From: an uncultured bacterium
Lineage (GTDB): Bacteria > Hydrothermota > Tepidihabitantia > B3-TA06 > CAYQJV01
NCBI GenBank assembly: GCA_964417925.1
Contig: CAYQJV010000005.1
Span: 176 to 64,175 of the forward strand
Length of the DNA: 64,000 nt
Reading direction: 5' to 3'
A model generated the notes under the pieces. It was not told where the DNA came from, did no database searches, and saw nothing but the letters and a program-made list of their open reading frames with translations. The position numbers and the translations under genes are program-made. Numbering within the stretch: the first letter of the stretch is position 1; each line of letters starts with the position of its first letter. Below, piece by piece: positions 4,992-50,328 of this stretch.

Positions 4992-6941
4992 CTATTCTAT
5001 TTTCATAATTTTCCCTTTGATTTTAATGGTAGGAGTAATTACTATAACTATGTATAATCCCTCTTTTAAACAATTTGTAGGAATTTCTATTTCTTTTTCT
5101 CCATTTTCTATATTTTTTACATACAAAAGTTTCCCTGTAATGGAATAGATAAACACATCTGCTTTATCTCCAGGATAATCTAAAATAAGTTTAGCTTTAT
5201 TCCTAAAAGGAGAAGGCATGGTATATGGCGAAGTGTAATTTTTTATGTAAACAGTTTTATAAATATAATTACTACGATTCCCAACACTATCCTCAGCACA
5301 CACAAAATAATAATATTTGCCTCTTTTTTTACCAAATAAAATTTTTTTATTTTCTATTTCATAAAAAATTGAATTTATACTTAAAGTATCTATAAATACG
5401 TTTCTTATCTCTAATCCGCCTTCGTAGGGAATCTTCTTAATAAACTCAAATTTCAAATACACTGGTTGGTCAGTTTGAAATATTAAGTTTCTTTTTTGCC
5501 ATGAAAAACTCTTAAATGTTATTGAATCTATTCTCTCCCACTCAACCCCATCTTTGGATACCTCAATGTAAAAACCATCTTTTTCCAACATCATTGTTTC
5601 TACATCGTAACTTTCAGAAAGAAAAGAATTGTATTCAAACTCAAGGAAAAAAGATTTGGATATCTTCTGTTTTAACAAGGCAGAACAATCTGCCCCAAAT
5701 CTTAATTTTCCCTCTCTTATTTCTGCCTTGTTTAGAACGAAATTGTTTTCATCTATCACTGGAGTTAAAAATCTCCCTTTTCCAACAGCTTCAACAACCC
5801 TATAACCTTTAAGAGCAAAATCATCTGCAGGCCTCCACTGCAACTCTACAAGATTATCTTTAATTCTTACCATAAAGGAGGTATCTATACGGGGAGGAAC
5901 ATCATCAATTCCATAGAACCGGTACAGAAACTGTGTCCACTTACAAAGCGTATCCCATAATAGCTTTTTATATTCTTTGTAAGCATATTTAAAGGACAAA
6001 TAGTTTAGAGGAAACCATATCCCAATTCCTCCTACAGGATAGGCATAAATGATTACTTTATTTATACTTTCCATTGCTTCTTCATCCTTTATGTTTTTTA
6101 AGAAACTAAGCATATCCACATAATCAGGATAACCTGACTCAATAGAAAATTCCTTTGATTCCTTTCGTGCATCCTTAAGTATACTAATATTATCTTTTTC
6201 CAATAATGTATTAAAACGAGAAATAAAAGAATTGAGCTGTAAAAGACAAATGGCTGATATGTATTGGGTTATCCCTTTAGATTTATAATAGCTGCTTACC
6301 TCATCTACAATATAAGTTGCTACTTCTTCTGTGCTCAAACTTGCATGTCTATCCATTGCATTCAGTAAGATATCATAAGGAATTCCAGAACTCACAAAAA
6401 GACTTTCGGATGCAATCATAACCTCTACAGCATCTTTTATTTCACATGCCACTTCCATTATTCCCATTACACAGGCATCAAAAATCACGATGCTAATCTT
6501 TTTCCCTATAATTTTTTTTATCTCTTCAAAAGCCTTTTTCAACTCCCCACCTGCAACTCCTATTGAGTTTCCAGAACTTCTATCTTTACTTACTGCCTGC
6601 AGTTTTTCTCTCCATCCATTACCATGCCCCCATATTACGAGAGCATATCTATCTGCAGATACAAAAGACTTTGATTCCCTGACAAAATCAACCAATGTAT
6701 TATAATCTCCCATATCTATTTCACCTTTTCTATATAGAAAATGTAAACCAGTTTTATCCAATTTATAAAACTGAGATTCATCGGTAAGGTAATCTACAAG
6801 TACAGTAGCTGAAATATTCTTAACTTGGGTACTCTTTAATTGTGCAAGTACTGTATCTACAAGAGGGGAGAGTGAGTTATCTCCATTTATATATAAAAAA
6901 ACTCCCCAATTACTACAAAAAAGCAGAGAAAGTATTTTCAT
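4992..6941 (-). CDS. clostripain-like (peptidase C11) cysteine protease with T9SS C-terminal sorting domain
   Basis: Signal peptide; WGHGNGW (His-Gly) and IVIFDACVMG (Cys) catalytic motifs of C11; C-terminal 80 aa match Por-secretion-tail pattern (DVFIYSITGKLLY...GLYIVIV...IKGKIMKIE). Confidence 0.7.
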   Translation of the reverse strand: MKILSLLFCSNWGVFLYINGDNSLSPLVDTVLAQLKSTQVKNISATVLVDYLTDESQFYKLDKTGLHFLYRKGEIDMGDYNTLVDFVRESKSFVSADRYALVIWGHGNGWREKLQAVSKDRSSGNSIGVAGGELKKAFEEIKKIIGKKISIVIFDACVMGIMEVACEIKDAVEVMIASESLFVSSGIPYDILLNAMDRHASLSTEEVATYIVDEVSSYYKSKGITQYISAICLLQLNSFISRFNTLLEKDNISILKDARKESKEFSIESGYPDYVDMLSFLKNIKDEEAMESINKVIIYAYPVGGIGIWFPLNYLSFKYAYKEYKKLLWDTLCKWTQFLYRFYGIDDVPPRIDTSFMVRIKDNLVELQWRPADDFALKGYRVVEAVGKGRFLTPVIDENNFVLNKAEIREGKLRFGADCSALLKQKISKSFFLEFEYNSFLSESYDVETMMLEKDGFYIEVSKDGVEWERIDSITFKSFSWQKRNLIFQTDQPVYLKFEFIKKIPYEGGLEIRNVFIDTLSINSIFYEIENKKILFGKKRGKYYYFVCAEDSVGNRSNYIYKTVYIKNYTSPYTMPSPFRNKAKLILDYPGDKADVFIYSITGKLLYVKNIENGEKEIEIPTNCLKEGLYIVIVITPTIKIKGKIMKIE

Positions 6942-6943
6942 TT

Positions 6944-6976
6944 AAAAGATAAGGGGGGAGACCCCCCTTATCTTTT
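6944..6976 (-). terminator. 15-bp GC-rich stem-loop (AAAAGATAAGGGGGG-AGA-CCCCCCTTATCTTTT), possible intrinsic terminator/attenuator overlapping porV-like stop and abutting C11 peptidase start
   Basis: Perfect inverted repeat flanked by A-run and T-run on both strands; seen directly. Confidence 0.5.
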
Positions 6977-7956
6977 TAAAATACCATTCCTACGGAAACC
7001 CTATGTATCATAGGTAAATATTTGTGATGTTCCACAGCATAGTCCATAAGAATCTTATACATCGGTCTTGGTATCACAAATCCTATTCCTCCTGATAAAT
7101 CTCTATTGTTTCTATTCGTATATCCTACTCTAAAGAAGTACCTGTCGCTTATACTATACTCCATTCCTAAAGCAAATACTTCTCCTTGATCTATTAGATA
7201 TCCAAAATCAGCTGCAAAGGCAAGTTTTGCCTCGGATGTTTTAAAGAGGTAAGTGGAAAGTCCTCCAAGAAATGTAAGTGGAAGGGGAAACGGCTCTGAT
7301 TCATAAGTAGAGGGCACATCTTCACTCATCAATGTATCAGGAGCATGCATGAATTCAAGTGCTTCTCCTTTAAATGCAACATCTGTAGGTGAGTAATTGA
7401 GTGCTACAAATCCCAGTTTTGTATTCTGTATTCCTGTTTCATAAGTTCCTCCTATATCAAATGCTACTGCTGTAGCAGAAACTTTGTGAATATTCATATT
7501 TATTACTTTCACACCAAACCCTGAAGAAAACTTATCGGTGAGCTTGGAAGCATATGTAACTCCTATTGCATAATTATTGGCAGTGAAGTAATGTTCGCCT
7601 TCTCCTAATTGATCCTCGTAAGCGGTCATAAGTATTCTTCCAGAAAGGTGTCCAGTAATTTGTATTCCTATGGCATTTCTACCAAGCGGAATTCCTATGG
7701 CAAGATTTTCCAAGTACATTCCTGCAAATAAATTTGCATGGGTAAAGGAAAAAGTATTTTTACTCACTGTAGTTATACCTGCTGGATTCCAGTATATTGC
7801 ATCAAGCCCATCTGCAAATCCTGCATATGCATATCCCAATGCAGAAGGCCTTGCTCCTCCACCCATTTTTAAAAATGCAGAGGAAGCCCCTATGCCTCCA
7901 AGCCTTGCAAAAGTCACACTCGCAATAACAAGGGCAATGAGAATTATTTTTTTCAT
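6976..7956 (-). CDS. PorV/PorQ-like outer-membrane beta-barrel (putative T9SS shuttle/anchor protein)
   Basis: Signal peptide then FLKMGGGARPSALGYAYAGFADGLDAIYWNPAGI, the N-terminal signature I associate with the PorV/PorQ family; beta-rich, C-terminal Phe; co-operonic with T9SS cargo. Confidence 0.55.
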   Translation of the reverse strand: MKKIILIALVIASVTFARLGGIGASSAFLKMGGGARPSALGYAYAGFADGLDAIYWNPAGITTVSKNTFSFTHANLFAGMYLENLAIGIPLGRNAIGIQITGHLSGRILMTAYEDQLGEGEHYFTANNYAIGVTYASKLTDKFSSGFGVKVINMNIHKVSATAVAFDIGGTYETGIQNTKLGFVALNYSPTDVAFKGEALEFMHAPDTLMSEDVPSTYESEPFPLPLTFLGGLSTYLFKTSEAKLAFAADFGYLIDQGEVFALGMEYSISDRYFFRVGYTNRNNRDLSGGIGFVIPRPMYKILMDYAVEHHKYLPMIHRVSVGMVF

Positions 7957-7973
7957 TTCTCCTCCTTAAAAAA

Positions 7974-10900
7974 TTATTTTATAATGGCAAATTTACCAAG
8001 TTTTGATTTTCCATCTTCTGTAACTATCTGGTAAATGTATAAACCACTGTAAATGTCAAGATTTTGCTCTGTCCTAAGATTCCAGAATTCACTTCCTCCA
8101 CCCTCGTGTTCTATGGTTTTTATAAGAAGTCCTGAAGGATCAAATATCCTGATTGTACATTTGTATGGAAGCCCTTGGAAGTAAACTCCTCTTTCATACT
8201 TACTCTTATCCCATGGAGCTCTCACATAATAAGGATTTGGCACTACTCTCACACCGTCAAGTGTGTAGTCTTCTTTTCTTTCTTCAAGAGAATGCGTAGA
8301 GATAACAAATTTATCGTCTATAAAGGGCTTAAGAGTCTTTATGTAAAAGGTATCTCCAATCACAGGGTCTACAGTATCTTTTACAACCGCAGTATCTATA
8401 TAAAACTCAACTCTCAAGAGCTTCTCATGAGTCTCTTTGTCAAGTATTTGAACATTATCACCCAAGCTTAAAATTCCTGTAGGAGAAGAATCTAAGTAGT
8501 ATTTAAACGGCACATCTTCGCCGGTCTTTACATCTTTAATTATAAAATTAGCTGGTTTTCCATTTATATCTGTACTGCTTCCTTCTTCAGCAATTACTAT
8601 TATATAATCCGTGGGATAAAGTTTCCATGCTTGGATAGAATGCATATAGTTACATTTACTACCTGCCACCCAACCTGTTTGAGCAGTATCATATTTAGTC
8701 TCCTGATCTATCATCAATGAATCTGGAGTATCCACCGTTATCATTAACCCATCTGCCGGTGGATAGAGATCCTCTCCTTTAATATATTTAACACTATCAA
8801 GTACTATTTCTCCTGTTCTTTTATTCTTTAGGTACCATCCTTTTACCTTATAATTTTCTGAATAAAAGCCAAGTTCATATTCATCTCCAGTAAGTTCCAA
8901 CGGATTTACCACGGTAACTTTAACAAAACCTTTACCTTCACCCTCTACGTGTTCCACGTATGCAGAATCTACGTTGAACTGATCCGCTGCAAACCTTGAA
9001 GGTATTGCAAAATACTTTTTACCTGTTAAACCACTTTCAAGTGAGGGGATACCATATTCTGGTTGAGGTCTGGAATACGAGGTTACACTGTAATAATAGG
9101 TCATTCCGTTTTTAACATCTGTATCTATGTAATAGTATTTAAGCCCTGTTTGTGCTCCTACACTGGAGGATTTATAGGTATTTACTATAAACACATCACC
9201 TTTATTAGGAGTAAGATCGGCTTCAGGACGTTCGGGATCAAATACTCCATTATAAATAGCAACATAAATACCATCAAAATAGATATAGGCTCCAGGAACA
9301 TATCCAGGATGTTCGCTGTATATCGTATCTCCTATCGGATCTTTTACAAAAAATCCTTTTTTATCTTTTATGGCATCTGGATTGTACTCGTATACCTGTT
9401 GTTCTGTCAGATTGTAAACTATAAAGTCTGTAGAATCTGTGAAGTTAATTGCATATGTAGCTTCTTTAAATAACTCATCCTTTGTCTGTGGTTCAAATCC
9501 CTTAAACTCAATATAGGCCATTGAGGTCTTAGTTTTGTAAGAAACCATTGCTGTATCAATGGTATAAGAATTAGCAACATCATAATCTGCAAGCAAGGTC
9601 CATGAACCAGCTATTCCTGTTAAACTTTTATATACTCTGTATCCTTCAAAAGTTTTATGCCCGCTCATCGGGTCTACAAAATTTTCAGGAGAGTTGTCCC
9701 ATACCAGATAAACCTTATTATCGCCTGGAATTACTGTAAGATTGGGAGGAGGTGGTGGTGAGAATCCTACGTATCCCATTTTAAAAAGTGTATCAGCTAT
9801 TTTTGCACTCTCTTTTAAACCTTCTAAGGTTAAAGAGACTATAACTGCAACCGTGAACTCTATCTCTTCACCAGGATAAAGAATCTCATAAGGGCCACTT
9901 GCTGATAACTGCCTCACATCTTTTGGCTCTTCCCATGTCATATACTCTGTGCTCTTAAGCATTTCATACTTGGCACTATCTCCAAAAATTCCTGGATAAT
10001 CGGGTGGGTCTCCATTTAACCATGTAGCAAAACCTGTTAAACCTTTATCTGCGGGTGTTTGAAGCAACACACAACCTATATACCCTGGAGGAGTGCTCCA
10101 ACCCTCTTCATAACCATCCGAATCATAGGTATACCCGAGGTTGAGTTCTTCGTCAAAACCTATCATATCGTCATCAGCATCTCCAACATCGTTATCCATG
10201 AAGTATCCTACATATACATTTTTCAATGGGAATGGATTCATATTCTTTATTTTGTAATTTATGAAGATGATATTGTCATTATAATTGTAGTTCCAAGAAT
10301 AGGTTCTTTGCTCTATTCTTATTCCCAATCCCCATGTATCATATGGTCCTGTATCCCTTATCCATATGACAGTAGCATCATCCTCTGGAATCCAATCTCC
10401 ACCACACGCATAAGTATCTTCCATTGATACAATATCTCCTATTTTAAGCTCCATACCCGCTGGCCTTCTTTTATTCAGTGTAGTATCTGTAAAAGGCCAG
10501 ATAGTCTGATAATCTTCAGGGGTTCCATGCTGAGCGAAAAGAAAGTCTCCTTCTCCTTCATATCCGTATCCTTCAGGAATTCTCTGGGTACTAAAGTAAA
10601 GTCCTAATCCTGAAATATCTCCCATTCCTCCTGCATTTTCAAGTTCGGGAACACTCATTGCACCAAGATCTGAATAGAAAGCAGCTTTTGATACATTGGG
10701 AACCCAAGTAGTGTCATTACCTTTCACCTTAGGATATAAAGCTCCTACCCATATTCCATTCGCCCAACTGTAGTACTGCCCACTACCTGCAGGGTACTCT
10801 CCTACTGATTTATAAATATATTCTCCTCTCAATGCATCAAAAGGAAAGGTACCATCATAATATTCCCAGGAAGGAGGTTGCCTAAACACACCACCTTGAA

Positions 10901-11138
10901 GTGTGTTAGAAACAAGCCATCCCTTTAGATTTCCAACTCCAGTCCATGCAATCATCCACCAATCTGCAGGCTTATCAGTAATCTCTGACATCAAGGATTT
11001 ATCGATCCTTTTTTTATGATGTTTCAGAGGATAGTTCCAATCAAGATTTTTAAAAACTGGAGGACGAGCAAACAGTGGAATTATTATACTTGTTGAAAAG
11101 ATAAGCGCCATTATCATCATAATCTTATTTTTTCTCAT
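7974..11138 (-). CDS. 1054-aa secreted T9SS-cargo protein of unknown family (module-1 cargo A)
   Basis: Signal peptide; Asp-rich DxDxGDxxDDMIG motif; PPPPPN linker; FN3-like segment; C-terminal T9SS CTD (RIFDPSGLLIKTI...GLYIYQIVTEDGKSKLGKFAIIK). Confidence 0.8.
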   Translation of the reverse strand: MRKNKIMMIMALIFSTSIIIPLFARPPVFKNLDWNYPLKHHKKRIDKSLMSEITDKPADWWMIAWTGVGNLKGWLVSNTLQGGVFRQPPSWEYYDGTFPFDALRGEYIYKSVGEYPAGSGQYYSWANGIWVGALYPKVKGNDTTWVPNVSKAAFYSDLGAMSVPELENAGGMGDISGLGLYFSTQRIPEGYGYEGEGDFLFAQHGTPEDYQTIWPFTDTTLNKRRPAGMELKIGDIVSMEDTYACGGDWIPEDDATVIWIRDTGPYDTWGLGIRIEQRTYSWNYNYNDNIIFINYKIKNMNPFPLKNVYVGYFMDNDVGDADDDMIGFDEELNLGYTYDSDGYEEGWSTPPGYIGCVLLQTPADKGLTGFATWLNGDPPDYPGIFGDSAKYEMLKSTEYMTWEEPKDVRQLSASGPYEILYPGEEIEFTVAVIVSLTLEGLKESAKIADTLFKMGYVGFSPPPPPNLTVIPGDNKVYLVWDNSPENFVDPMSGHKTFEGYRVYKSLTGIAGSWTLLADYDVANSYTIDTAMVSYKTKTSMAYIEFKGFEPQTKDELFKEATYAINFTDSTDFIVYNLTEQQVYEYNPDAIKDKKGFFVKDPIGDTIYSEHPGYVPGAYIYFDGIYVAIYNGVFDPERPEADLTPNKGDVFIVNTYKSSSVGAQTGLKYYYIDTDVKNGMTYYYSVTSYSRPQPEYGIPSLESGLTGKKYFAIPSRFAADQFNVDSAYVEHVEGEGKGFVKVTVVNPLELTGDEYELGFYSENYKVKGWYLKNKRTGEIVLDSVKYIKGEDLYPPADGLMITVDTPDSLMIDQETKYDTAQTGWVAGSKCNYMHSIQAWKLYPTDYIIVIAEEGSSTDINGKPANFIIKDVKTGEDVPFKYYLDSSPTGILSLGDNVQILDKETHEKLLRVEFYIDTAVVKDTVDPVIGDTFYIKTLKPFIDDKFVISTHSLEERKEDYTLDGVRVVPNPYYVRAPWDKSKYERGVYFQGLPYKCTIRIFDPSGLLIKTIEHEGGGSEFWNLRTEQNLDIYSGLYIYQIVTEDGKSKLGKFAIIK

Positions 11139-14264: not shown

Positions 14265-14294
14265 GTGTCCTCCTTGTTTTTGTTTATTATTAAA

Positions 14295-14321
14295 CAGAGG
14301 GGAGAGAGGCTCTCCCCTCTG
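14295..14321 (-). promoter_or_regulatory. intercistronic GC-rich stem-loop (CAGAGGGGAGAG-AGG-CTCTCCCCTCTG) between porV-like-2 and TBDR-1
   Basis: Perfect 12-bp inverted repeat immediately 5' of the AAGGAGGA RBS of the downstream cistron. Confidence 0.5.
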
Positions 14322-14345
14322 TAATCTATTGGTTTTTTTATTTTT

Positions 14346-15380: not shown

Positions 15381-15400
15381 CTCTCCTCCTATCATGAATA

Positions 15401-18410: not shown

Positions 18411-21158
18411 TTAAAATAGAATACTAAAACCAACCCTTATTAACCTGGGATTACCGTAGTTAAGTGGATTATCCACAAGGGGCTTTCTCGCATTCATGTA
18501 AGACTCATATGCTTCTCTTCTTGTAATATATCCATCGTGGTTGAAATCTCTTGCAGGATGATAATAAGTGGTTCCGATCCATCCAAGATCTGAAAAATCA
18601 TTTTCTGTAATTATAGCTCCATCATCATCTGGCTTACCCGTGGCTCCATGAACTGAAAGCACATTGGTAACATTGAAGAGATTTCTTATATCTGCGAACA
18701 CTTCCATGCTCAGCCCAAATATATTCAACTTTTTGGTGATCTTAGCATCTGTGTACCACACATTTGGCCTTCTTGCAGAATTTAAATCTCCTATCTGGTT
18801 ACCCCTGGTGTCTGTAGGAGTATATGGCAAACCGGTTCTGAAATACGTCACAAAACCAATTTCAGAATTCCTCAAAAGATTAATATGGAAATCCTTTGGA
18901 AACTTAAATCCAAGATCCCAGTTTAAAGTATGTCTTACATCATAATCAAGCCAGTAATCAACAGCTGGTATGGTAATGCCTCTGTAACTCAGATAGTAAT
19001 TTGCATAAGCTGTGGCAGCTGTTCCCTTTGCCTCTTGATAGGTATAGGAAATCTTGGTATGCCAGAATTGTCCCTCAACAAGAAGTTTTGTAAGTGTTAC
19101 TTCAAATCCCTTTACCCTTCCAAATGCAGTATTCTTGTAGAGATAATAAGACATAGGAAGTGCCTGAATCAATTCAGTAGTTACAAGGTCATAAATATCT
19201 TTGTAAAATAGTGTTAAATCAAATGCAAAATAATCGGTCAACTGAGCTTCAAACCCCGTTTCATAGGCGATTGTTTTTTCTGCTGCGAGATCAGGATTAC
19301 CTACTATTATATTCCCCCTTCTTGAAACATCTGCATGCAGAGATTCATAGAGATAGGAAAACCCAGGATCCTGGAAGAAATGCCCGTAGAAAAATCTAAA
19401 CTTAACTCTATCAGTAACAGGAAATGCCATCCCAAATCTTGGGGAGATTTTATATTTGATGGTTGCCCTTACTGTATCATTTCTAAAAAGGCTTTCAGGA
19501 TATACCCTTTTATAAGCAGCTGGATCAAGCATATCCAATCTGAATCCACCCCTTAAGACAAGACCTTCAAAGTCTGCCCTATCCTGTACATAAGCAGCAA
19601 ATCTAACAGGATGTAGTTTATAAGCATCCCAGAATGGATTTGGATCCCAAGGAAGAGAATTCTCATAAAGCATTAAGGTATATTTGTTAAAATCAAAGCC
19701 CGTTTTAAATTCATGTACCTTACCTATGTTAAGGGTATAATCTCCCTTTGCAATATAGGTTTCTGAGGCTCTAAAATGCCATAATCTATAGTCTCCTTCA
19801 CCAATATATAGACCAAAAACGCCCCACGGATTATTGGTTCCATACCATGGTTCTGTAAATATCTCCAATTTATAAAGATTTTTAACTGCTGTATCAGGTG
19901 GTAAGGTATCATTGTGCAGAACAAAATCTTCTGCTTTAAATTTAAATCTATGCCATATACCTGCTTTATCCAGAATCCCCCATATACCTTGCAAATTTTC
20001 TTCTGCTTCTTTATCTCTTATTCCTATAATTCTTCCATTGTAAAAGTATCCAAGTTTAAAATTAATAACACCACTACCAATCATCATATTGAACAACAGA
20101 TTAAGCCTTCTAAAATCCATTCTGTTAGAACGATAATGGTCAAGCCAGTATCTCCAAGACATACTAAAAGAATTCCACTGTTCACTGCTTAAAAATGCAG
20201 CAAGATTTATTTTACCCGAAGGAAACCTAAATGTTAACTTGCCTTCTATTCTTCCCTCATCTCTTTTGCTTGGCAATCTATCTCTATTGGTGTATAGATA
20301 ATCTCTTGTAAAGAGCTCTCCTGAAATAAAGTAGCCTGATTTTTTTATCCCCGGCAAGGGCCCAGAAATATGCCCCTGCCAGTACTTGTATCCATAATTC
20401 AGTGCTGTAGTTGGGAATATAGCATCTGTAGTGTATCTTAAAGCTCCCTCTACACCTGGTTTTGTACCTCCTTCCTTTGTAACTACCTGAATTACTCCAG
20501 ACATTGCCTGGCCATATTCAGGGTCAAAACCACCTGTTAAAACAATAACCTCCTGTATTGCATCCCTTGAAGGAGAAGCATAAGAAATGCCATAAAATGG
20601 ATCCTGAGTATTAATACCATCTACATATGTGGCAACCTCACCAAACCTTCCTCCACGAATATGGGTATAGCCATCTGCAGTAGTAACTCCTGCCTGCAAT
20701 GCGACAAGTCCGGTTAAAGTTTGAACGGGTAATCTATCAAATTCTTTTGAAGAGATAACTCTTGTAGTCTGTACTGCTGTTCTCACTACTACATCTCTTT
20801 TAGCCCTTACCTCAACAGGACCAACCTCAATCACCGTTGGCCTCAACTTAAAATCCACAGTGGTTGTTTGGTCAGGAATAACCAGTACTCCTGTTTTTCT
20901 TACAGTTTGATATCCTATGTATGACGCAACCACAGTGTATGTTCCTGGTGGAATATTAAAAATAAGATAACTTCCTGTCTCATCGGTGGCTGCTCCAAGG
21001 TCTGTACCCTCAATTATAATGTTAACTCCTATAAGGGGCTCTCCGGTCTCTGCATCTACAACCCTTCCCGTAATTCTTCCTGTCTCTCCTGCCCATAAAA
21101 GGGCAAAGAGAGCTATAAGTAAAACTATCTTCCTCATCATATCCCCCTTGTTATTCAA
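18411..21158 (-). CDS. TonB-dependent receptor with CarboxypepD_reg domain (module 2), paralog of 11160-14264
   Basis: N-terminal 100 aa about half identical to TBDR-1 (GRVVDAETGEPLIGVNIII...PGTYTVVASYIGY), plug motifs, terminal Phe. Confidence 0.85.
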   Translation of the reverse strand: MNNKGDMMRKIVLLIALFALLWAGETGRITGRVVDAETGEPLIGVNIIIEGTDLGAATDETGSYLIFNIPPGTYTVVASYIGYQTVRKTGVLVIPDQTTTVDFKLRPTVIEVGPVEVRAKRDVVVRTAVQTTRVISSKEFDRLPVQTLTGLVALQAGVTTADGYTHIRGGRFGEVATYVDGINTQDPFYGISYASPSRDAIQEVIVLTGGFDPEYGQAMSGVIQVVTKEGGTKPGVEGALRYTTDAIFPTTALNYGYKYWQGHISGPLPGIKKSGYFISGELFTRDYLYTNRDRLPSKRDEGRIEGKLTFRFPSGKINLAAFLSSEQWNSFSMSWRYWLDHYRSNRMDFRRLNLLFNMMIGSGVINFKLGYFYNGRIIGIRDKEAEENLQGIWGILDKAGIWHRFKFKAEDFVLHNDTLPPDTAVKNLYKLEIFTEPWYGTNNPWGVFGLYIGEGDYRLWHFRASETYIAKGDYTLNIGKVHEFKTGFDFNKYTLMLYENSLPWDPNPFWDAYKLHPVRFAAYVQDRADFEGLVLRGGFRLDMLDPAAYKRVYPESLFRNDTVRATIKYKISPRFGMAFPVTDRVKFRFFYGHFFQDPGFSYLYESLHADVSRRGNIIVGNPDLAAEKTIAYETGFEAQLTDYFAFDLTLFYKDIYDLVTTELIQALPMSYYLYKNTAFGRVKGFEVTLTKLLVEGQFWHTKISYTYQEAKGTAATAYANYYLSYRGITIPAVDYWLDYDVRHTLNWDLGFKFPKDFHINLLRNSEIGFVTYFRTGLPYTPTDTRGNQIGDLNSARRPNVWYTDAKITKKLNIFGLSMEVFADIRNLFNVTNVLSVHGATGKPDDDGAIITENDFSDLGWIGTTYYHPARDFNHDGYITRREAYESYMNARKPLVDNPLNYGNPRLIRVGFSILF

Positions 21159-22086
21159 CCACCTTTATAGGTATTGCTATCATCGAGGCTTTTAATGATT
21201 CCTTTGGATATACAAATACATGGTATATAATTGCCTCAAAGTAAATCTTCTTCAACCCCGGCTCAGTAAAAACAAATTTCTTTGTAGTATCTGAATAAAT
21301 GTAGTGTTTTCCATCTATCACAAAATATTTAACAGTAGTATCTATAACATTGAATCCTCTTTCAGGGTCCAGGGCTGTCCAAAAACTCTCTATCTCTACC
21401 GTATCTCCTGCTTTCACAGAAATAAGGGAATCAACTGAATAAAGTCTTTCTACTCCATAGGTTGTAGTATCTGGTCTATAATAAATTGTATCCTTCCCAC
21501 CAGAATGACTTAAGATCACACGGAAAACAACAGGAGCATCCTGAATATTGGGAATATCCATTTTTGCTCCGCCTGTTATCTTGGAAAGAATCCAATTCCC
21601 TTCGTCATCCCTTTCAAAGAAAGCCCTCCTCCACACCTCTGCCTCAAAACTCTTTTCAAAGGTTGTATCAATAGAAGTGGGTGTACTATCTCCTTTTCTA
21701 TACACTTTATCAATATAAATCTCAATTGTCCCTTTCAAAGAATCAATTATCTCAACCTCAAGGGTAGTATCAAAAGGACTCAAAATCATCGTATCTTTAT
21801 GAATACTATCCGTAATGTTTCTAAAAAATCCATAAGGTATATATCTTTCCATAGAGATATTATCCTTAACATAATCTTCAATAACTCCAGGAAGCTCTAC
21901 CTTTTCTTTTTCAAGAAAGCCAAGAGAATATATTATATCTTGATTCTCTTCCAAAAGATTCATAATTGCAGTTGTATCCTCTGAAGAGGGTTCCCAGGGA
22001 GGTGGGGGAGGTTCTTTGGTACAACTATTAATAAAAAATAGCAATATCCCTATTATTACACATCCTATCCCATGCTTTATCCTCAT
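21151..22086 (-). CDS. lipoprotein of unknown function (lipobox FFINSC, Pro-rich linker)
   Basis: Signal peptide with Cys lipobox, PPPPPWEP linker; sits immediately upstream of TBDR-2 with 8-nt overlap. Confidence 0.6.
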   Translation of the reverse strand: MRIKHGIGCVIIGILLFFINSCTKEPPPPPWEPSSEDTTAIMNLLEENQDIIYSLGFLEKEKVELPGVIEDYVKDNISMERYIPYGFFRNITDSIHKDTMILSPFDTTLEVEIIDSLKGTIEIYIDKVYRKGDSTPTSIDTTFEKSFEAEVWRRAFFERDDEGNWILSKITGGAKMDIPNIQDAPVVFRVILSHSGGKDTIYYRPDTTTYGVERLYSVDSLISVKAGDTVEIESFWTALDPERGFNVIDTTVKYFVIDGKHYIYSDTTKKFVFTEPGLKKIYFEAIIYHVFVYPKESLKASMIAIPIKVVE

Positions 22087-22099
22087 GTTTTTCCTCCTT

Positions 22100-22128
22100 C
22101 TGTGGAGAGGGAACTCCCCTCTCCACAG
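22100..22128 (-). promoter_or_regulatory. intercistronic GC-rich stem-loop (CTGTGGAGAGGG-AACTC-CCCTCTCCACAG)
   Basis: Perfect 12-bp inverted repeat immediately 5' of AAGGAGGAAAAAC-ATG of the lipoprotein gene. Confidence 0.5.
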
Positions 22129-22137
22129 AGTTTAACT

Positions 22138-23871
22138 TTACCTTATTAAGGTAATCTTACCAGAGTAAGTACCTTTTTCTGTTTTTAAAGTGTAGAAGTA
22201 TATGCCTGAACTAAGGCCTGGAACTTTTATCTGATTGTTTCCACGTGTTACATTTAACGTTCTTTCAAAGACCTTTCTGCCTGCAGTATTGTAAAGTACA
22301 ATACGAGCATTATCAACAGCAGTTTTTGAAGTTATATGTATAGCACCTGTTCCTCCAAACACTGTAATGTTTTCAGAAACCACGGCCTCCTCAATTCCTA
22401 CGGTTGTGGGTACTTTTAGTATCACAGGAAGATATTTGTCGTAAATTGTTGCAAGTTCATCGTTAAGCAGATGAGTATAGTAAACATCTCTTCCATCTAA
22501 CTGTTCACAGAAGAATATGTGAGCAACTGCAGTACTGTCATCCACAATCTGAAGGTTCTTTGCTACATGAGGCCTACATTCAGTCTCTTCCTCAGTATTT
22601 GTAACATTTGCCTCACTAAGATCGTTCCACTCCACCCCTCTGTTCCAACTATACCTTACGTATATATCCCACCTTATTCCTTCTCCAGCTGTGGAATCTG
22701 CAATATCTTCCTGCTGCCCCCATACCGCTGCAATCCATTTATCAGAAGTAGCCAAACTTATACAACCAGGGTCTACAAGTGGTGCTATTGCACCTGGATC
22801 AGGCTCTGCATTTACAAGAAATGCGGTATCACTAACTTCAGGAATGTATACATACACTGCACCAAAAGGAGGATATCTTCCTGTCTGGTCATAGTATTCA
22901 TACCGAGAATAGATAAATGCAGGAGAACCATCATCAAACAATGCAACCTGTAAATCCACATAAGCTGGTTGACCTTCTTTGAATAGATGGAATGTATCAA
23001 TTACAGGAACATAAAACTCTATAGGTTGAGGGGATGACCAGGTTTCTCCTTCATCTTCTGAGGTTACATAATAATACCCATGAGAATTATTATCCCATGC
23101 CGCCACAATTATCTTGTCTCCTCTAACATCCCAACCAGAAAGAAAAACTGCATCTCCTAAATCTGGGAACAATTGTGTCTGTACCTCAGTAGAGGTAAAA
23201 TCATCCAAGGTTCTATAAAACCATACAGCACCCTTATCAGTTCCTAAAGTAATCTGCATTACAATACCAATGGCACCACTCTCCAGCTGTTTTCCTATCA
23301 CTTTATGACAATCAATATCACCTCCTAAGGGAAGAGGATCATCCCATACTCCACTTCCCCATCCACCAGAACCATATGCTCCAGCAGGAATCCCCCAGGC
23401 AGGACCTTCTGTCAACACAGGGAATGTAGCTCTTGGATAATCGTCATAGGAAACCACTGCTGTAGGATACCTTCCTCCAGGATTTGACCCAGAAATTCCA
23501 AACTCTCCCCTAAAAATGGTATCAGCAATATTTTCTGAAGTAAATTGATCAGATGAACTATGTGCTATTATAATTCCTGTAGGATCAAGACCTCTATTCA
23601 CTATCAACACATAACCAGCTTCTGGATTCCAAGAAATACATTCATGTAATGCCCCAAAAAGACATCCCCAAGCATGGCCTGAAGAGTCTACAATAACTCC
23701 TGTGCTGAATTTCACATCAGGAGAAGGCGAAATATAACGGCCATTCTCCGCATCAAAAGGACTGTACTTATTAAGTATCATCGCACTTTTATTGAGTTCG
23801 TTAACAGGTATATACATTGCTGCTGTTAACACACTCACCATAAAAACACTTAATAACATCTTCTTCATCAT
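22138..23871 (-). CDS. BNR/Asp-box repeat secreted protein with T9SS C-terminal sorting domain
   Basis: Signal peptide, SxDxGxTW-type repeat (TSEDEGETWSS), C-terminal CTD (ARIVLYNTAGRKV...SGIYFYTLKTEKGTYSGKITLIR). Confidence 0.7.
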   Translation of the reverse strand: MMKKMLLSVFMVSVLTAAMYIPVNELNKSAMILNKYSPFDAENGRYISPSPDVKFSTGVIVDSSGHAWGCLFGALHECISWNPEAGYVLIVNRGLDPTGIIIAHSSSDQFTSENIADTIFRGEFGISGSNPGGRYPTAVVSYDDYPRATFPVLTEGPAWGIPAGAYGSGGWGSGVWDDPLPLGGDIDCHKVIGKQLESGAIGIVMQITLGTDKGAVWFYRTLDDFTSTEVQTQLFPDLGDAVFLSGWDVRGDKIIVAAWDNNSHGYYYVTSEDEGETWSSPQPIEFYVPVIDTFHLFKEGQPAYVDLQVALFDDGSPAFIYSRYEYYDQTGRYPPFGAVYVYIPEVSDTAFLVNAEPDPGAIAPLVDPGCISLATSDKWIAAVWGQQEDIADSTAGEGIRWDIYVRYSWNRGVEWNDLSEANVTNTEEETECRPHVAKNLQIVDDSTAVAHIFFCEQLDGRDVYYTHLLNDELATIYDKYLPVILKVPTTVGIEEAVVSENITVFGGTGAIHITSKTAVDNARIVLYNTAGRKVFERTLNVTRGNNQIKVPGLSSGIYFYTLKTEKGTYSGKITLIR

Positions 23872-23934
23872 TACCTCCTTTTTCTTTTTATTTATTTTTT
23901 ATTTATTTTTTTATTTTTATCACCCCCTTTCTTT

Positions 23935-24552
23935 TTAATCTGTTAATCTAAAGTGGAAGGGTATGGAAACCCATACCCTCACATACCTATCTCTCTGTTT
24001 AGCAGGAGAAAAGAGCCATTGTCTTGCAGCCTGCACCGCTGCTCTATCAAGTTCAGCATTTCCTGAAGATTTAAGTATTTTAACATCTATTACTTTTCCA
24101 TCTGTATCAACAAGTGCGCTTACTACCACAGTTCCCTCTATCTCCGCCTTTCTTGCAAGTTCAGGATAAACAGGCTTAACCTGCCTGATAGGTTTTGGCT
24201 TTACTTCCACTTTATAATAAGGAACAACAGGAACTTCAACACTTTCTTCAGGTTTTTTGTATATCTCAGCAAAATCGGTTGTAGAAATTGTAGCAGCCTC
24301 CACCTCTGCCTCTGATTCAGCTGCCACTGGAAGAGCAGGTTTCTGTTCTGGAGGAGGTTCCACTATTTCTTGTAGTTCACTTGGGATATTTTCTGCAATA
24401 AGTTCTATCTTTTTCTTAGGCTTATAAGGAGTCACCTTTATTTCACGGGGGAGTAGTACAAAAAGAAGTATATGAATCAATAAAGCACCCGCTATACCTA
24501 TTCGTAGATAAATTGGGTACTCTCTTTTTAAATCCATCACCTCAACGGCCAT
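23935..24552 (-). CDS. tonB: energy transducer TonB
   Basis: N-terminal TM anchor, Pro/Glu-rich spacer, C-terminal TonB domain (VKPVYPELARKAEIEGTVVVSALVDTDGKV). Confidence 0.75.
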   Translation of the reverse strand: MAVEVMDLKREYPIYLRIGIAGALLIHILLFVLLPREIKVTPYKPKKKIELIAENIPSELQEIVEPPPEQKPALPVAAESEAEVEAATISTTDFAEIYKKPEESVEVPVVPYYKVEVKPKPIRQVKPVYPELARKAEIEGTVVVSALVDTDGKVIDVKILKSSGNAELDRAAVQAARQWLFSPAKQRDRYVRVWVSIPFHFRLTD

Positions 24553-24560
24553 ACTTCCTC

Positions 24561-24971
24561 CTAAGTTTCATATTCCGTTGCAAAAGTTAGTTTAAGTGCT
24601 CCAACCTCTCTTAACTTTTCTATCACCTGGTTCACCGTTTTATATTTTGCGTAGTGGTCAGCCCTGAGTATAACTATGAGGTCAGGGTTCTCTGTAAGCT
24701 TCTCCTGAATTTTAACGCCAAGCAAGGAAAGGCTTACCAACTTATCATCAATAACAATTCTGCCCTCCCTATCCACCCATACATTCGTAGTATTCCTACG
24801 CAATCTTATTCTTTCGGTTGCCTTTGCCTTTGGAAGAGTAATTGGAATTCCTTTTTCAACTCTAAAAACAGTTGTAACCATAAAGAAAAGTATCAAAAGA
24901 AATGCAATATCCGACATAGAAGCAGTAGGAATATAGGCTTCGTGTTCCTTTTTTCTTTTTATCTTCATCAC
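24561..24971 (-). CDS. exbD: biopolymer transport protein ExbD/TolR
   Basis: Single N-terminal TM (IAFLLILFFMV) plus periplasmic ExbD fold; tandem with paralog. Confidence 0.8.
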   Translation of the reverse strand: MMKIKRKKEHEAYIPTASMSDIAFLLILFFMVTTVFRVEKGIPITLPKAKATERIRLRRNTTNVWVDREGRIVIDDKLVSLSLLGVKIQEKLTENPDLIVILRADHYAKYKTVNQVIEKLREVGALKLTFATEYET

Positions 24972-25375
24972 TCCTCCTCAAGAGGTACAAGACTTATTCG
25001 CTTTGCCTTTGCAAGTTTTAATTCATCTAAAACATCTATCATTATTTTATAAGGAGCAGAAGGGGAGACTTTTATAGCAAATGCAAGACTCTCATTTTCT
25101 CCTAAAGCCCGCTCTATTTTCTCCCTCAATTGAGGAATTGTAATTTTTTCATTCTCTATTAACACATCCCCCACAGGATTGACGAGTATTTCCATAATAT
25201 TTTCTTTTTTAACCTTCACCGTCTCACCTTTTTCAGGCAACAATAATTTCAATCCCTTTTCTCTGGCAAATATAGTGGCGGTCATAAAAAATATAATCAG
25301 AAGAAAGGCAATATCTGCCATAGAGGCTGTAGGAATCTCAGCCTTGGTTTCTTTTCTTTCTCTAAGGGTTACCAT
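24968..25375 (-). CDS. exbD: biopolymer transport protein ExbD/TolR (second paralog)
   Basis: Same architecture (ADIAFLLIIFFMTAT); 4-nt overlap with neighbours. Confidence 0.8.
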   Translation of the reverse strand: MVTLRERKETKAEIPTASMADIAFLLIIFFMTATIFAREKGLKLLLPEKGETVKVKKENIMEILVNPVGDVLIENEKITIPQLREKIERALGENESLAFAIKVSPSAPYKIMIDVLDELKLAKAKRISLVPLEEE

Positions 25376-25378
25376 TTT

Positions 25379-26005
25379 TTATCCCTTTGATTTTAAAATA
25401 CCTTTTTCTAAAAGGAAATCTACAAGCACAGAGGCAGCCTCTTCCATATCTCTTGCGTATCTATTAATCACAGCTGAATAAAGGGTGTGAAATAACACCA
25501 CCGGCGCTGCAATGGCAAGTCCTGAAGCAGTGGTAATCAAAGCCTCAGAGATACCTGATGCTACAATTGTAGGTTCTACTTCTCCTGCTTTTGCGATAGC
25601 ATCAAAAGCACTTATCATTCCAGTCACTGTACCAAGAAATCCAAGAATTGGGGCAAGGGTGGAAGCCATGGAAAGCCATATCATCCCTCTGTCAAGAAAC
25701 GCAAGTTCCACTGCTCCAGCAGCAGAAATACTTTCTTCAACTACCTCCTTCCCAAGCTTCACCTTTGCAAGGCCTGCTCCCAGTATCTTTGCTACTGGCT
25801 GAGGTGTTTTATCACACAGTTCCTTAGCAGCCTCTATGCCTTCCTCTTCTATAACTTGTTTTAGTCTTTCTACAAACTTTAATGGATTCAACCTTGCTTT
25901 AATAAGAAGAGTTATGGCTCTTTCTATTATAAAAGCAAGAGCTATAAGAGATACCACAAGAAGGGCATACATTACTCTTCCGCCTTTAATGAAGAGTTCT
26001 ATCAT
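25379..26005 (-). CDS. exbB: MotA/TolQ/ExbB proton-channel protein
   Basis: Three TM segments, conserved C-terminal TolQ/ExbB region (GTVTGMISAF...GISEALITTASGL). Confidence 0.85.
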   Translation of the reverse strand: MIELFIKGGRVMYALLVVSLIALAFIIERAITLLIKARLNPLKFVERLKQVIEEEGIEAAKELCDKTPQPVAKILGAGLAKVKLGKEVVEESISAAGAVELAFLDRGMIWLSMASTLAPILGFLGTVTGMISAFDAIAKAGEVEPTIVASGISEALITTASGLAIAAPVVLFHTLYSAVINRYARDMEEAASVLVDFLLEKGILKSKG

Positions 26006-26033
26006 TCATTCCTCCTTTCTTTTGCTTTTTAAA

Positions 26034-26061
26034 ATTATAACTCATAATAATATTTTGTCAA
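26034..26061 (-). promoter_or_regulatory. sigma70-like promoter on minus strand (TTGACA -35 at 26056-26061, TATAAT -10 at 26034-26039, 16-bp spacer) upstream of exbB
   Basis: Both hexamers are perfect consensus; AGGAGG RBS then exbB ATG about 25 nt downstream. Confidence 0.55.
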
Positions 26062-50320: not shown

Positions 50321-50328
50321 GTCTCCTC

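Follow-up and report, generated by a model that had tools for sequence, protein, structure and literature searches.

In Sus-like loci the partner of the TonB-dependent receptor (TBDR) is a lid, a lipoprotein of the SusD family. The locus analysed here encodes two TBDRs and no SusD-family protein, which raises the question of what serves the receptors as partner and how this partner is delivered to the surface and anchored there. The locus lies in a 64-kb stretch of bacterial DNA (the window), where a first-pass annotation had described 13 co-directional minus-strand genes running from a consensus sigma70 promoter at 26.06 kb.

Organization of the gene cluster

All 13 open reading frames were found, at the coordinates and in the order that had been claimed: exbB-exbD-exbD-tonB, a 577-aa protein with a T9SS-type C-terminal domain (CTD), a lipoprotein, two triplets and a CTD-bearing C11 peptidase. 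Each triplet consists of a TBDR with an N-terminal CarboxypepD_reg domain, a protein of about 1000 aa (big protein) and an outer-membrane barrel of the PorV/PorQ family, and the two triplets are paralogous copies. The features are, in the direction of reading:

26034..26061, minus strand: sigma-70-type promoter match, TTGACA-16 nt-TATAAT, 12/12, 28 nt upstream of exbB
25379..26005, minus strand: exbB, 208 aa, MotA/TolQ/ExbB proton channel (PF01618, 93.7 bits)
24968..25375, minus strand: exbD copy 1, 135 aa (PF02472, 84.8 bits)
24561..24971, minus strand: exbD copy 2, 136 aa, 4-nt overlap with copy 1 (PF02472, 94.9 bits)
23935..24552, minus strand: tonB, 205 aa (PF03544 TonB_C, 88.6 bits)
22138..23871, minus strand: 577-aa secreted protein with canonical type A T9SS CTD (TIGR04183, 37.1 bits; PF18962, 35.7 bits)
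22098..22130: GC-rich hairpin of 14 bp within the 51-nt gap, coding (minus) strand without T tail
21151..22086, minus strand: putative lipoprotein of 311 aa, in which FINSC closes the signal peptide and a Pro-rich linker follows
18411..21158, minus strand: TBDR 1, 915 aa from TTG, with CarboxypepD_reg, Plug and 22-strand-type barrel
15401..18397, minus strand: big protein 1, 998 aa, all-beta, with Sec signal and PorZ/PorU-like CTD and without lipobox
14346..15395, minus strand: PorV/PorQ-family outer-membrane barrel 1, 349 aa (NF033709, 182.8 bits)
14294..14322, minus strand: GC-rich hairpin of 13 bp with T-containing tail, within the 81 nt that separate modules 1 and 2
11160..14264, minus strand: TBDR 2, 1034 aa, with CarboxypepD_reg, Plug and barrel
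7974..11138, minus strand: big protein 2, 1054 aa
6976..7956, minus strand: PorV/PorQ-family outer-membrane barrel 2, 326 aa (NF033709, 144.7 bits)
6951..6968, minus strand: G6/C6 hairpin followed by TTTT, extendable to about 15 bp (6943-6976)
4992..6941, minus strand: C11 (clostripain-family) cysteine peptidase, 649 aa, type A/C-like T9SS CTD

As a pattern, the promoter was borne out: the match at 26061-26034 is the sole perfect one (12/12) within 4.5-27.6 kb, and after it come AAAGGAGG and the exbB ATG. The gene order stood, but not the claim that all genes overlap or are separated by 50 nt or less, as three gaps are longer: tonB to the 577-aa gene (63 nt), the 577-aa gene to the lipoprotein gene (51 nt) and barrel 1 to TBDR 2 (81 nt). 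GC-rich hairpins of about 13-15 bp are present in the 51-nt and 81-nt gaps and in the 34-nt gap 5' of the C11 gene, and in two of the three the coding strand continues into a terminator-like T tail. The first of them is abutted by the SD of the lipoprotein gene, the second can be either a terminator-like or an RNA-processing/stability element, and the third takes up the whole space from barrel 2 to the C11 gene, the ATG of which is left without an SD. Because terminator-like hairpins separate the modules and precede the C11 gene, co-expression is not guaranteed, and a single transcript for the 13 genes is an unproven inference.

The CTD of the 577-aa protein exceeds the TIGR04183 cut-off (23 bits) and matches a substrate CTD chain (8glj_D); no family was found for its body. 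Its former label, "BNR", could not be upheld, since there is no Pfam BNR domain and only one clean Asp-box (SEDEGETW) was recognized by eye; a BNR-like propeller may exist but lacks proof. The FINSC of the 311-aa protein was read as an N-terminal lipobox-like motif. This protein had no family match; at the locus L089, the 75%-identical relative, a 305-aa gene occupies the same position. The description of the last gene as a T9SS-sorted C11 protease agrees with its scores (PF03415, 115.2 bits; TIGR04183, 24.1 bits, just above the cut-off; NF033708, 25.7 bits), and its catalytic His (GHGNGW) and Cys (FDACVM) motifs are present and align to solved C11 enzymes (6mzo).

TBDR 1, for which an ATG 7 codons inside the TTG-started frame is the likelier start, matched PF13620 (73.8 bits), PF13715 (72.6) and PF07715 (28.8), and TBDR 2 matched PF00593 (95.9), PF13715 (77.4), PF25183 (55.2) and PF07715 (34.1). 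The two receptors are 31% identical over their full length. Assignment of TBDR 1 to the SusC family was rejected, as TIGR04056, whose cut-off is 368 bits, gave 70 bits and covered the N-terminal 200 aa only.

Both barrels are well above the cut-off of the PorV/PorQ-family model NF033709 (90 bits), as expected from their annotation as PorV-like, and they share 31% identity. Barrel 1 is below the equivalog cut-offs of PorV, PorQ and PorV2, and its sole sequence match among solved structures is F. johnsoniae PorV (6h3i_F, E 7.5e-4). All three PorV-family genes of the window sit after a gene for a CTD protein; in the third case, the CTD best matches that of PorU and the PorV/PorQ-family barrel is next downstream.

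Structure and C-terminal domain of the big proteins

Big protein 2 consists of a signal peptide, a beta-supersandwich (residues ~55-460), Fn3-like and Ig-like sandwiches, a variable region (701-955) and the CTD (956-1054). The two big proteins are 29% identical in the N-terminal core and 40% in the last ~100 aa. They belong to no Pfam or NCBIfam family, and no relative was found by sequence in the PDB. A lipobox was found in none of 48 big-protein homologues, which, together with the absence of SusD, supports the earlier proposal that the surface partners are not delivered by the lipoprotein pathway.

The big proteins had also been annotated as T9SS cargo. TIGR04183 alone did not support this (13.9 and 16.5 bits, under the cut-off), but homology to type A CTDs was evident at the profile level: HHalign comparison of the big-protein CTD with 98 canonical type A CTDs gave a probability of 96.5% (E 8e-10); control domains reached 0.5-2%. 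In both NCBIfam and the PDB the CTDs of PorZ and PorU matched best, the PDB sequence matches being weak (E 0.011 and 0.099), and PorZ was the top PDB match when Foldseek was run with the big-protein model. The big-protein CTD thus has homologues in the type A CTDs, and its nearest counterparts are in PorZ and PorU. PorU and PorZ retain their CTDs, which are bound by PorV and PorQ (PMC10202324; PMC5562754), and it has been proposed in a review that cognate PorV-like barrels shield CTDs from cleavage (PMC10202324). The CTD is also the most conserved region of the big proteins (56% mean pairwise identity, compared with 26% in region 701-955 and 26-43% elsewhere), which is easier to reconcile with a lasting protein-protein interface than with a signal that is thrown away.

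It is conceivable, if unlikely, that PorU removes the CTD and the big protein then becomes attached to lipid/LPS or is released; the barrel would be a dedicated PorV-type shuttle carrying bulky cargo from the translocon rather than a permanent anchor, and the TBDR would still import. Shuttling is a known role of PorV (PMC5562754; PMC10202324), and the type A CTDs to which the big-protein CTD is homologous are cleavable. However, a discarded signal would not be expected to be the best-conserved part of the protein, and the nearest matches, PorZ and PorU, are the two CTDs known to remain uncleaved. Moreover, cargo with canonical CTDs does without a private barrel: the many canonical-CTD enzymes within triplet loci lack one, and paralogues with the same N-terminal domain as the big protein but a canonical Por_Secre_tail had neither TBDR nor barrel neighbours (2/2, a contrast that rests on two cases only).

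The confident AF2 model of the big protein is all-beta and contains a supersandwich of the type found in carbohydrate enzymes, a fold otherwise known from glycoside hydrolases and phosphorylases. We also considered, as an improbable alternative, that the big protein is an enzyme rather than a passive lid, processing glycans or peptides, for example, by way of an invariant acidic cluster (D315/D317/D323/D339/E344), so that the unit would combine surface enzyme, anchor and importer. The cluster falls in the most conserved stretch, residues 301-350, and one paralogue adjoins an M4 peptidase. Yet the supersandwich is the non-catalytic N-domain in the glycoside hydrolases and phosphorylases that possess it, the model shows neither an (alpha/alpha)6 domain nor any other that could be recognised as catalytic, there was no match to a Pfam, NCBIfam or PDB enzyme family, and the cluster could equally be a Ca2+ site.

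Conservation and neighbours of the triplet

Hundreds of genomes from the Bacteroidota-related (FCB) phyla contain the triplet; at least 592 related loci were found in species-representative genomes, and the big-protein family comprises 1952 clusters at 50% identity (E<=1e-30). In the best 80 of these loci, the gene immediately preceding the big-protein gene encoded a TBDR in 68 of 70 evaluable cases, and the one immediately following it encoded a PorV-like barrel in 72 of 75; all shared the strand of the big-protein gene, and the gaps had a median of 17 nt. The 80 genomes represent WOR-3, Marinimicrobia, Calditrichota, Ignavibacteria, KSB1, Rhodothermales, Cytophagia and others; order and adjacency were kept over at least eight phylum-level lineages, and three phylum-level relatives show the same TBDR-big protein-barrel order as the window. 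The module is also present in Bacteroidota orders known to use T9SS. The conservation of the triplet in relatives, on which the first-pass annotation depended, is thereby established. Ton genes were clustered with the module in only one related genome (locus L090: exbB-exbD-exbD-tonB-TBDR-big protein-...-barrel-S8/CTD), and their presence in the cluster is a feature of the lineage, not of the module in general.

Among 71 downstream neighbours at related loci were Por_Secre_tail (27), GH144-like (11), CBM20 (10), GH94 (6-7) and CBM48 (6) proteins, as well as GH53, GH2, GH3 and amylase; the 68 upstream neighbours included Por_Secre_tail (22), LacI (15) and CBM9 (9). The Ignavibacterium album locus reads LacI-GH94-CBM9/CTD-TBDR-big protein-barrel-GH144-like-CBM-GH35/42. 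At the loci of the closest relatives of the window and of Marinimicrobia, glycosidases are replaced by peptidases (S8 with CTD, C10 with CTD); the flanking peptidases of related loci are of families S8, C10 and C11, and many of the flanking hydrolases carry CTDs. These hydrolase, CBM and LacI or peptidase flanks lend independent support to the nutrient-capture function suggested before. The substrate can only be inferred: at this locus it is probably peptides or protein fragments, with uncertainty, since the supersandwich suggests glycan binding, yet the local enzymes are peptidases.

There is little to recommend the opposite direction of transport, in which a CarboxypepD_reg-type TBDR would work outward and translocate the big protein or the hydrolases with TonB energy, the barrel being the acceptor, perhaps independently of a canonical T9SS. 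A receptor of this type, Oar of Myxococcus, reportedly takes part in PopC secretion, the TBDRs are outside the SusC family, and at this locus as in L090 the operon begins with the Ton genes. Furthermore, no T9SS core gene (SprA, PorK-N, PorU) lies within the 64-kb window, so that T9SS export is inferred from CTD homology and the phylogenetic range of the module. Against outward transport stand the occurrence of the module in T9SS-using Bacteroidota orders and its resemblance, in the flanks, to substrate-utilisation loci: LacI, GH94 phosphorylases acting on imported oligosaccharides, and symporters are what import predicts.

Least credible is that the barrels serve small hydrophobic compounds as FadL-type channels and adjoin the big proteins only through shared regulation, or that the cluster merely juxtaposes independent functions, because the Toluene_X/FadL Pfam matches are weak and sub-threshold (24-25 bits) compared with 145-183 bits for the PorV/PorQ model, and, although hairpins lie between the units, the close spacing and cross-phylum order of the triplet and the position of all three PorV-family genes after CTD proteins speak against both.

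Proposed mechanism

The reading that we regard as probable, though not secured, is SusD-independent TonB uptake in which the partner of the receptor is exported by T9SS and its CTD is kept on the cognate PorV/PorQ-like barrel. The big protein would be exported by Sec, remain non-lipidated and pass the outer membrane via T9SS. Its CTD would stay uncleaved and docked on the barrel; this anchoring is inferred from the likeness to PorZ/PorQ and PorU/PorV, where an uncleaved CTD sits on a barrel. Docking would hold the big protein at the surface beside the TBDR, for which it may act as substrate-capturing partner, either as a lid or as a surface binding protein. Its contact with the barrel or the TBDR is inferred, with no direct evidence. 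CTD-tagged hydrolases (the C11 peptidase, perhaps joined by the 577-aa protein) would cleave the polymer at the cell surface, and the TBDR would take in the products, powered by ExbB-ExbD-ExbD-TonB from the head of the cluster.

No description of the three-gene unit was found in the literature. In the SusC/SusD pair the receptor has a lipoprotein lid, whereas at this locus a T9SS-type CTD protein and a barrel are found in its stead, and a TBDR partnered by a secreted CTD protein with its own small barrel looks like an arrangement that has not been described before.

Organization of the gene cluster

ORF calling identified 13 ORFs on the minus strand of the window, between 26005 and 4992. Searches against Pfam and NCBIfam confirmed the gene order proposed in the first-pass annotation: exbB-exbD-exbD-tonB, a protein with a type IX secretion system (T9SS) C-terminal sorting domain (CTD), a putative lipoprotein, two triplets and a C11 peptidase. 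By triplet we mean a TonB-dependent receptor (TBDR), a large protein of about 1000 residues (the big protein) and a PorV/PorQ-family barrel. With ExbB, ExbD and the TonB C-terminal domain all above the Pfam gathering scores, the Ton energising complex is complete.

Genes of the cluster (window, 26005 to 4992), listed from exbB to the C11 peptidase gene
ExbB, minus strand, PF01618 93.7 bits
ExbD (first copy), minus strand, PF02472 84.8 bits
ExbD (second copy), minus strand, PF02472 94.9 bits
TonB, minus strand, PF03544 88.6 bits
577-aa protein, minus strand, type A T9SS CTD as sole recognisable part, TIGR04183 37.1 bits (cut-off 23)
311-aa protein, minus strand, no family, lipoprotein-like signal (FINSC)
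TBDR 1, minus strand, CarboxypepD_reg, Plug and barrel
Big protein 1, minus strand, 998 aa, no family
PorV/PorQ-family barrel 1, minus strand, NF033709 182.8 bits (cut-off 90)
TBDR 2, minus strand, PF07715 34.1 and PF00593 95.9 bits
Big protein 2, minus strand, 1054 aa, no family
PorV/PorQ-family barrel 2, minus strand, NF033709 144.7 bits (cut-off 90)
C11 peptidase, 4992-6941, minus strand, PF03415 115.2 bits, CTD with TIGR04183 24.1 bits (cut-off 23)

The 577-aa protein had been described as a BNR cargo. Its sorting domain is well above the TIGR04183 cut-off, but the BNR assignment found no support in Pfam, NCBIfam or the PDB, and only one Asp-box could be discerned by eye.

The consensus promoter predicted upstream of exbB is present (TTGACA-16-TATAAT, 12/12 match at 26061-26034) and is followed by a strong Shine-Dalgarno sequence and the exbB start; no other perfect match occurs in the 23 kb scanned. 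The genes of the cluster lie on the same strand and the gaps are short, but not all of them are 50 nt or less as had been stated, since gaps of 63, 51 and 81 nt were found. Strong hairpins of about 13-15 bp, rich in GC, are located in three of the gaps of the otherwise AT-rich cluster (22098-22130, 14294-14322 and 6951-6968). Two of the three share a GGGGAGAG/CTCTCCCC core, and those at 14294-14322 and 6951-6968 carry T-rich tails on the coding strand. The hairpin at 6951-6968 touches the ATG of the C11 gene, for which no Shine-Dalgarno sequence is left. The possibility that the hairpins represent a shared dispersed repeat element was rejected because their motifs have no other copies in the window. 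In view of the hairpins, a single transcript that starts at the 26.06-kb promoter and includes the C11 gene is plausible but, without RNA data, not assured.

Just upstream of the exbB promoter, the minus strand contains small ORFs of 196, 114 and 116 aa without a Pfam family (26063-27341). They are preceded by a promoter-like sequence (11/12 match, 27346-27319), which faces a divergent 11/12 match (27367-27394) belonging to an S49 peptidase gene. Transcription from the small ORFs reading through into the cluster is possible. Farther along the window lie two paralogous-looking proteins of 1468 and 1312 aa (28302-32708, plus strand, and 33640-37578, minus strand), which combine an adenylate/guanylate cyclase domain, an AAA_16 ATPase and long, MalT-like TPR arrays; a 287-aa ORF of no family is located between these facing genes.

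Receptors, barrels and peptidase

The two triplets are paralogues, with 31% identity between the TBDRs (over their full length), 31% between the barrels and 29-40% between the big proteins. Both receptors have the plug and barrel of TonB-dependent receptors in Pfam and NCBIfam, in agreement with the first-pass annotation; for TBDR 1 this rests on PF07715 (28.8 bits) and on barrel matches to several TonB-receptor NCBIfam models (E 1e-11 to 1e-14). They do not qualify as members of the SusC/RagA family: against TIGR04056 (cut-off 368.25) they reached 70.2 and 80.0 bits, and the alignment was confined to the N-terminal ~200 aa comprising CarboxypepD_reg and the plug. Among the 13 ORFs no SusD/RagB-family protein was detected with Pfam or NCBIfam.

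The two ORFs that had been called PorV-like passed the PorV/PorQ family model NF033709 with 182.8 and 144.7 bits (cut-off 90), and the PDB match of barrel 1 was PorV (6h3i_F). They are not orthologues of PorV, PorQ or PorV2, because they remained below all three equivalog cut-offs: 63.1 and 49.7 bits against 250 for NF033710 (PorV), 77.5 and 70.4 against 220 for NF033711 (PorQ), and 81.0 and 56.7 against 325 for NF052325 (PorV2). The PorP/SprF model gave 17.7 bits (cut-off 90.55). The window contains a third NF033709 member (132.1 bits), a 606-aa fusion protein (44075-45895, minus strand) that combines the barrel with CarboxypepD_reg and a PorE-like OmpA peptidoglycan-binding domain. It is preceded, with a 4-nt overlap, by the gene of a 1028-aa FG-GAP repeat protein (45892-48978, minus strand), whose CTD matches that of PorU best (34.3 bits). 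A BamB-like propeller and a lipoprotein are encoded upstream of this pair (48992-51609).

The last gene of the cluster encodes a clostripain-like peptidase, as had been proposed: the protein belongs to family C11, and its catalytic His and Cys motifs (GHGNGW and FDACVM) align to their equivalents in 6mzo. Its assignment as a T9SS-sorted protein is borderline, because it passed the NCBIfam model (24.1 bits against 23) but failed that of Pfam (23.7 against 27). Only about 13 residues (MKILSLLFCSNWG...) precede the first conserved strand of the C11 fold, which is very short for the Sec signal peptide needed by T9SS cargo, and there is no in-frame upstream start.

The big protein family

The big protein belongs to no family in Pfam, NCBIfam or the PDB, where only sub-threshold matches to its CTD were obtained. 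Exact matches to the window proteins were confined to short Logan contigs and a single NCBI contig. Among named homologues of the big protein, the nearest belong to candidate division WOR-3 (44-46% identity); TA06, Fermentibacteria and Marinimicrobia come next. Judged by these best hits, the window derives from an uncultured bacterium of the FCB group that is probably related to WOR-3. An exhaustive HMM search yielded 1952 clusters (50% identity) at E<=1e-30 and 6401 at E<=1e-10. A Sec-type signal was present at the start of all 48 homologues examined and a lipobox in none of them.

AlphaFold2, run with the 48-sequence alignment, returned a confident all-beta model (pLDDT 87.1, pTM 0.76). Conservation is bimodal: mean pairwise identity is 54% in the supersandwich core and 56% in the last 100 residues, and falls to 26% in the least conserved part (residues 701-955 of big protein 2). 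This bimodality suggests a constant scaffold and interface combined with a variable, possibly substrate-specific, region. Some homologues of ~1200 aa (P0010, P0014, P0016, P0025-27, P0029, P0037 and P0040) align to the first 52-58% of the big protein with 47-53% identity, and have a Baseplate_J-like (PF04865) Pfam match in the remainder.

The C-terminal domain and its barrel

The first-pass annotation had regarded the C-termini of the big proteins as T9SS CTDs. Tested as single sequences, they did not reach the TIGR04183 cut-off (13.9 and 16.5 bits against 23); in NCBIfam they scored best against the CTD portions of PorZ (29.4 and 23.1 bits) and PorU (21 bits). The claim found support at the profile level. 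A profile of 20 family CTDs gave PorZ (5m11, E 0.011) and PorU (6za2, E 0.099) as top PDB hits, and 8-11 of the 20 sequences matched Por_Secre_tail, CHU_C or FlgD_ig at E<=1 (best E 0.006, 4.2e-6 and 2.1e-6). When compared by HHalign with 98 canonical CTDs, gathered from neighbouring genes by iterative HMM search, the big-protein CTD aligned over 57 columns with 96.5% probability (E 8e-10), whereas an unrelated beta-sandwich used as control gave 0.5-2%. This comparison and the PorZ/PorU profile matches indicate, from sequence homology alone, that the domain belongs to the type A CTD superfamily as a true though divergent member. Its VVPNPY motif is followed by an insert specific to the family.

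Three observations link this special CTD to a private barrel. Two paralogues, P0079 and P0074 (L091 8001-11351 and L092 8001-11417), share the N-terminal ~450-residue supersandwich of the big protein but end in a canonical Por_Secre_tail; in the two cases examined, no TBDR or PorV-like gene stands next to them, and one of the two adjoins an M4 peptidase with a CTD. Dozens of enzymes with canonical CTDs are encoded within the triplet loci, and they have no barrel of their own. Finally, in the FG-GAP protein of the window a special, PorU-like CTD is again followed by a PorV/PorQ-family barrel.

Conservation of the triplet

The order TBDR, big protein, PorV-like barrel was found at 49% identity in a WOR-3-like MAG, at 37-39% in Fermentibacteria and at 35% in Marinimicrobia. 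A survey with one genome per GTDB species yielded at least 592 loci, of which the best 80 were analysed. These came from groups including WOR-3/Stahlbacteria, Eisenbacteria, Krumholzibacteria, Calditrichota, KSB1, Marinimicrobia, Ignavibacteria (among them Ignavibacterium album, Melioribacter and the isolate Rosettibacter primus), Rhodothermales, Cytophagia, Chitinophagales and other Bacteroidota. ORFs were classed by phmmer against the window proteins, and only big-protein genes with enough flanking DNA were counted. Among these best 80 of at least 592 loci, a TBDR gene lay directly upstream in 68 of 70 cases and a PorV-like gene directly downstream in 72 of 75, which establishes that the adjacency is conserved in relatives. 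In the evaluable loci the triplet genes were all co-directional, and the gap between them had a median of 17 nt.

A Pfam census of operon-like neighbours found, among 71 downstream proteins, Por_Secre_tail (27), FlgD_ig (18), GH144-like 'Glycoamylase' (11), CBM20 (10), GH94 (6-7), CBM48 (6), GH53, GH2, GH3 and alpha-amylase. The 68 upstream proteins included Por_Secre_tail (22), LacI-family regulators (15), SurA-like PPIases (13), CBM9 (9) and GH94 (4). The I. album locus runs LacI, GH94, CBM9-CTD protein, TBDR, big protein, barrel, GH144-like, CBM protein, GH35/42. Such glycosidase-flanked loci are polysaccharide-utilisation loci (PULs) that lack only the SusC/SusD pair. In the closest relatives of the window and in Marinimicrobia the glycosidases are replaced by CTD-tagged peptidases (S8, C10; C11 in the window). 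The SurA-like PPIase (Rotamase with or without SurA_N) stood directly before the TBDR in 13 of the 68 upstream neighbours (loci L013-L088), which suggests a dedicated periplasmic chaperone of the triplet in some lineages.

The 75%-identical relative L089 has the same tandem double-module layout, and where the window has the lipoprotein gene it has one of 305 aa. The complete head of the cluster recurs in L090 (48% identity; exbB-exbD-exbD-tonB-TBDR-big protein-...-barrel-S8/CTD), the only one of the relatives examined with Ton genes near the triplet. A phmmer search of loci L001-L088, extending to 10 kb from the triplet, detected no Ton gene, 577-aa protein or 311-aa lipoprotein; these genes were therefore rejected as parts of the core module and are local additions. 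Two WOR-3-like loci (L003 13237-15009 and L090 13273-15075) encode a PKD/NHL-repeat protein of ~590-600 aa between big protein and barrel, an insertion indicating that the triplet has room for a fourth surface component.

Discussion

We consider it quite probable that the triplet is a conserved TonB-dependent uptake module. In the mechanism inferred, the big protein would be exported in two steps, first via Sec and then, by means of its CTD, via the T9SS. The CTD would stay on and dock on the cognate PorV/PorQ-like barrel, which would thus hold the protein at the surface. Beside the TBDR the big protein would capture substrate, as a functional analogue of SusD, of surface glycan-binding proteins (SGBPs) or of the lipoprotein lids of Bacteroides TonB-dependent transporters (TBDTs). 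The polymer would be cut by CTD-tagged hydrolases, in the window presumably the C11 peptidase, and the products imported by the TBDR, powered by ExbB-ExbD2-TonB, whose genes are present in the cluster and whose function here is inferred. As the co-encoded hydrolase is a C11 peptidase, the substrate of the window system is probably protein.

The anchoring detail, i.e. that the big protein is held on the barrel through its CTD, is a reading, inferred by analogy, to which we lean only slightly. PorZ and PorU, the two T9SS proteins for which retention of the CTD is known, are held on PorQ and PorV, which are 14-strand FadL-like barrels (PMC10202324; PMC5562754), and it has been proposed in a review that cognate PorV-like barrels shield such CTDs from cleavage (PMC10202324). 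The barrel could instead be only a shuttle, with the CTD cleaved, which we regard as unlikely. That the big protein is an enzyme is doubtful and slightly less likely; an invariant acidic cluster (D315, D317, D323, D339, E344) in its best-conserved stretch might bind a metal or form an active site. No T9SS core gene (SprA/Sov, PorK/L/M/N, PorT, PorU) was found within the 64-kb window, and it can be imagined that the triplet is a self-sufficient, TonB-powered device for surface assembly and uptake which needs no canonical T9SS, the CarboxypepD_reg-TBDR and the PorV-like barrel moving the CTD protein out and holding it in lineages such as WOR-3. This is very improbable; if true, the triplet would be an evolutionary precursor or minimal cousin of the T9SS attachment complex and SusCD. 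TBDR-driven export as such, without need of a canonical T9SS, has only a slim chance of being correct. Least credible is that the barrel is an unrelated FadL-type channel or that the genes came together by chance, given their conserved adjacency.

The uptake module proposed here resembles SusC/SusD (RagA/RagB) loci in that a CarboxypepD_reg TonB-dependent transporter stands by a surface partner, with hydrolases, binding modules and a regulator around; LacI, GH and CBM genes occur in the loci related to the triplet. RagAB is the peptide-importing version of SusCD. The triplet differs in having no SusD/RagB-family protein, in TBDRs that fail the SusC/RagA model, in a partner that is all-beta, ~1000 aa long and not lipidated and carries a T9SS-type CTD, and in a third, obligatory gene for a PorV/PorQ-family barrel. 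With PorU-PorV and PorZ-PorQ of P. gingivalis it has in common the CTDs, which match PorZ and PorU best, and barrels belonging to NF033709. The barrels are not orthologous, however, the big protein has neither the PorU peptidase domain nor the PorZ propellers, and the pair is tied to a TBDR and substrate-utilisation genes rather than to cargo processing.

Genes of type B CTD cargo (SprB-SprF, PG1035-PorP) adjoin a private PorP/SprF-like anchoring barrel, with or without PorE (PMC9143113). The third pair of the window, with its barrel fused to a PorE-like OmpA domain, is similar in this respect. In contrast, the big-protein CTD is type A-like, the barrel is of the PorV/PorQ and not the PorP/SprF family, and the triplet goes with TonB-dependent transport rather than with adhesion or gliding. 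For non-SusC TBDTs of Bacteroides (BtuG and other families), ligand capture by surface partners encoded alongside them has been reported (bioRxiv 10.1101/2023.03.17.533168; PMC10404256). These lids are lipoproteins delivered by the lipoprotein pathway, whereas the big protein has no lipobox and would rely on CTD and barrel. The 'atypical PUL' of Cytophaga hutchinsonii (chu_1276-1280) was rejected as the same system: its partners are small SGBP-B-like proteins, and PorV is not mentioned.

No published account of the triplet or of the big-protein family was found, nor anything on the triplet in the Caldithrix and single-cell cellulose literature; coverage of the literature was incomplete and an earlier genome paper is not excluded. 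A TBDT with partner and hydrolases, CTD-barrel anchoring and non-SusC TBDT lids are known concepts. What sets the triplet apart is their combination, in which the defining SusC and SusD features are absent and neither barrel is orthologous to PorV, PorQ or PorV2.

PULs are currently defined and counted via SusC/SusD pairs, and by this definition most non-Bacteroidia FCB lineages seem poor in PULs. The triplet can be tested directly, since it is present in cultured Ignavibacterium, Melioribacter, Rosettibacter and Bacteroidota orders. It would define a large protein family without a Pfam or NCBIfam model, would give a physiological role to many unexplained PorV/PorQ paralogues, and would extend the idea of a cognate barrel keeping an uncleaved CTD from the secretion machinery to nutrient acquisition. 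With its glycosidase or peptidase flanks and a spread over at least ~600 genomes at the species level and ~2000 protein clusters (50% identity, E<=1e-30), the conserved triplet would represent a second archetype of TonB-dependent polymer harvesting.
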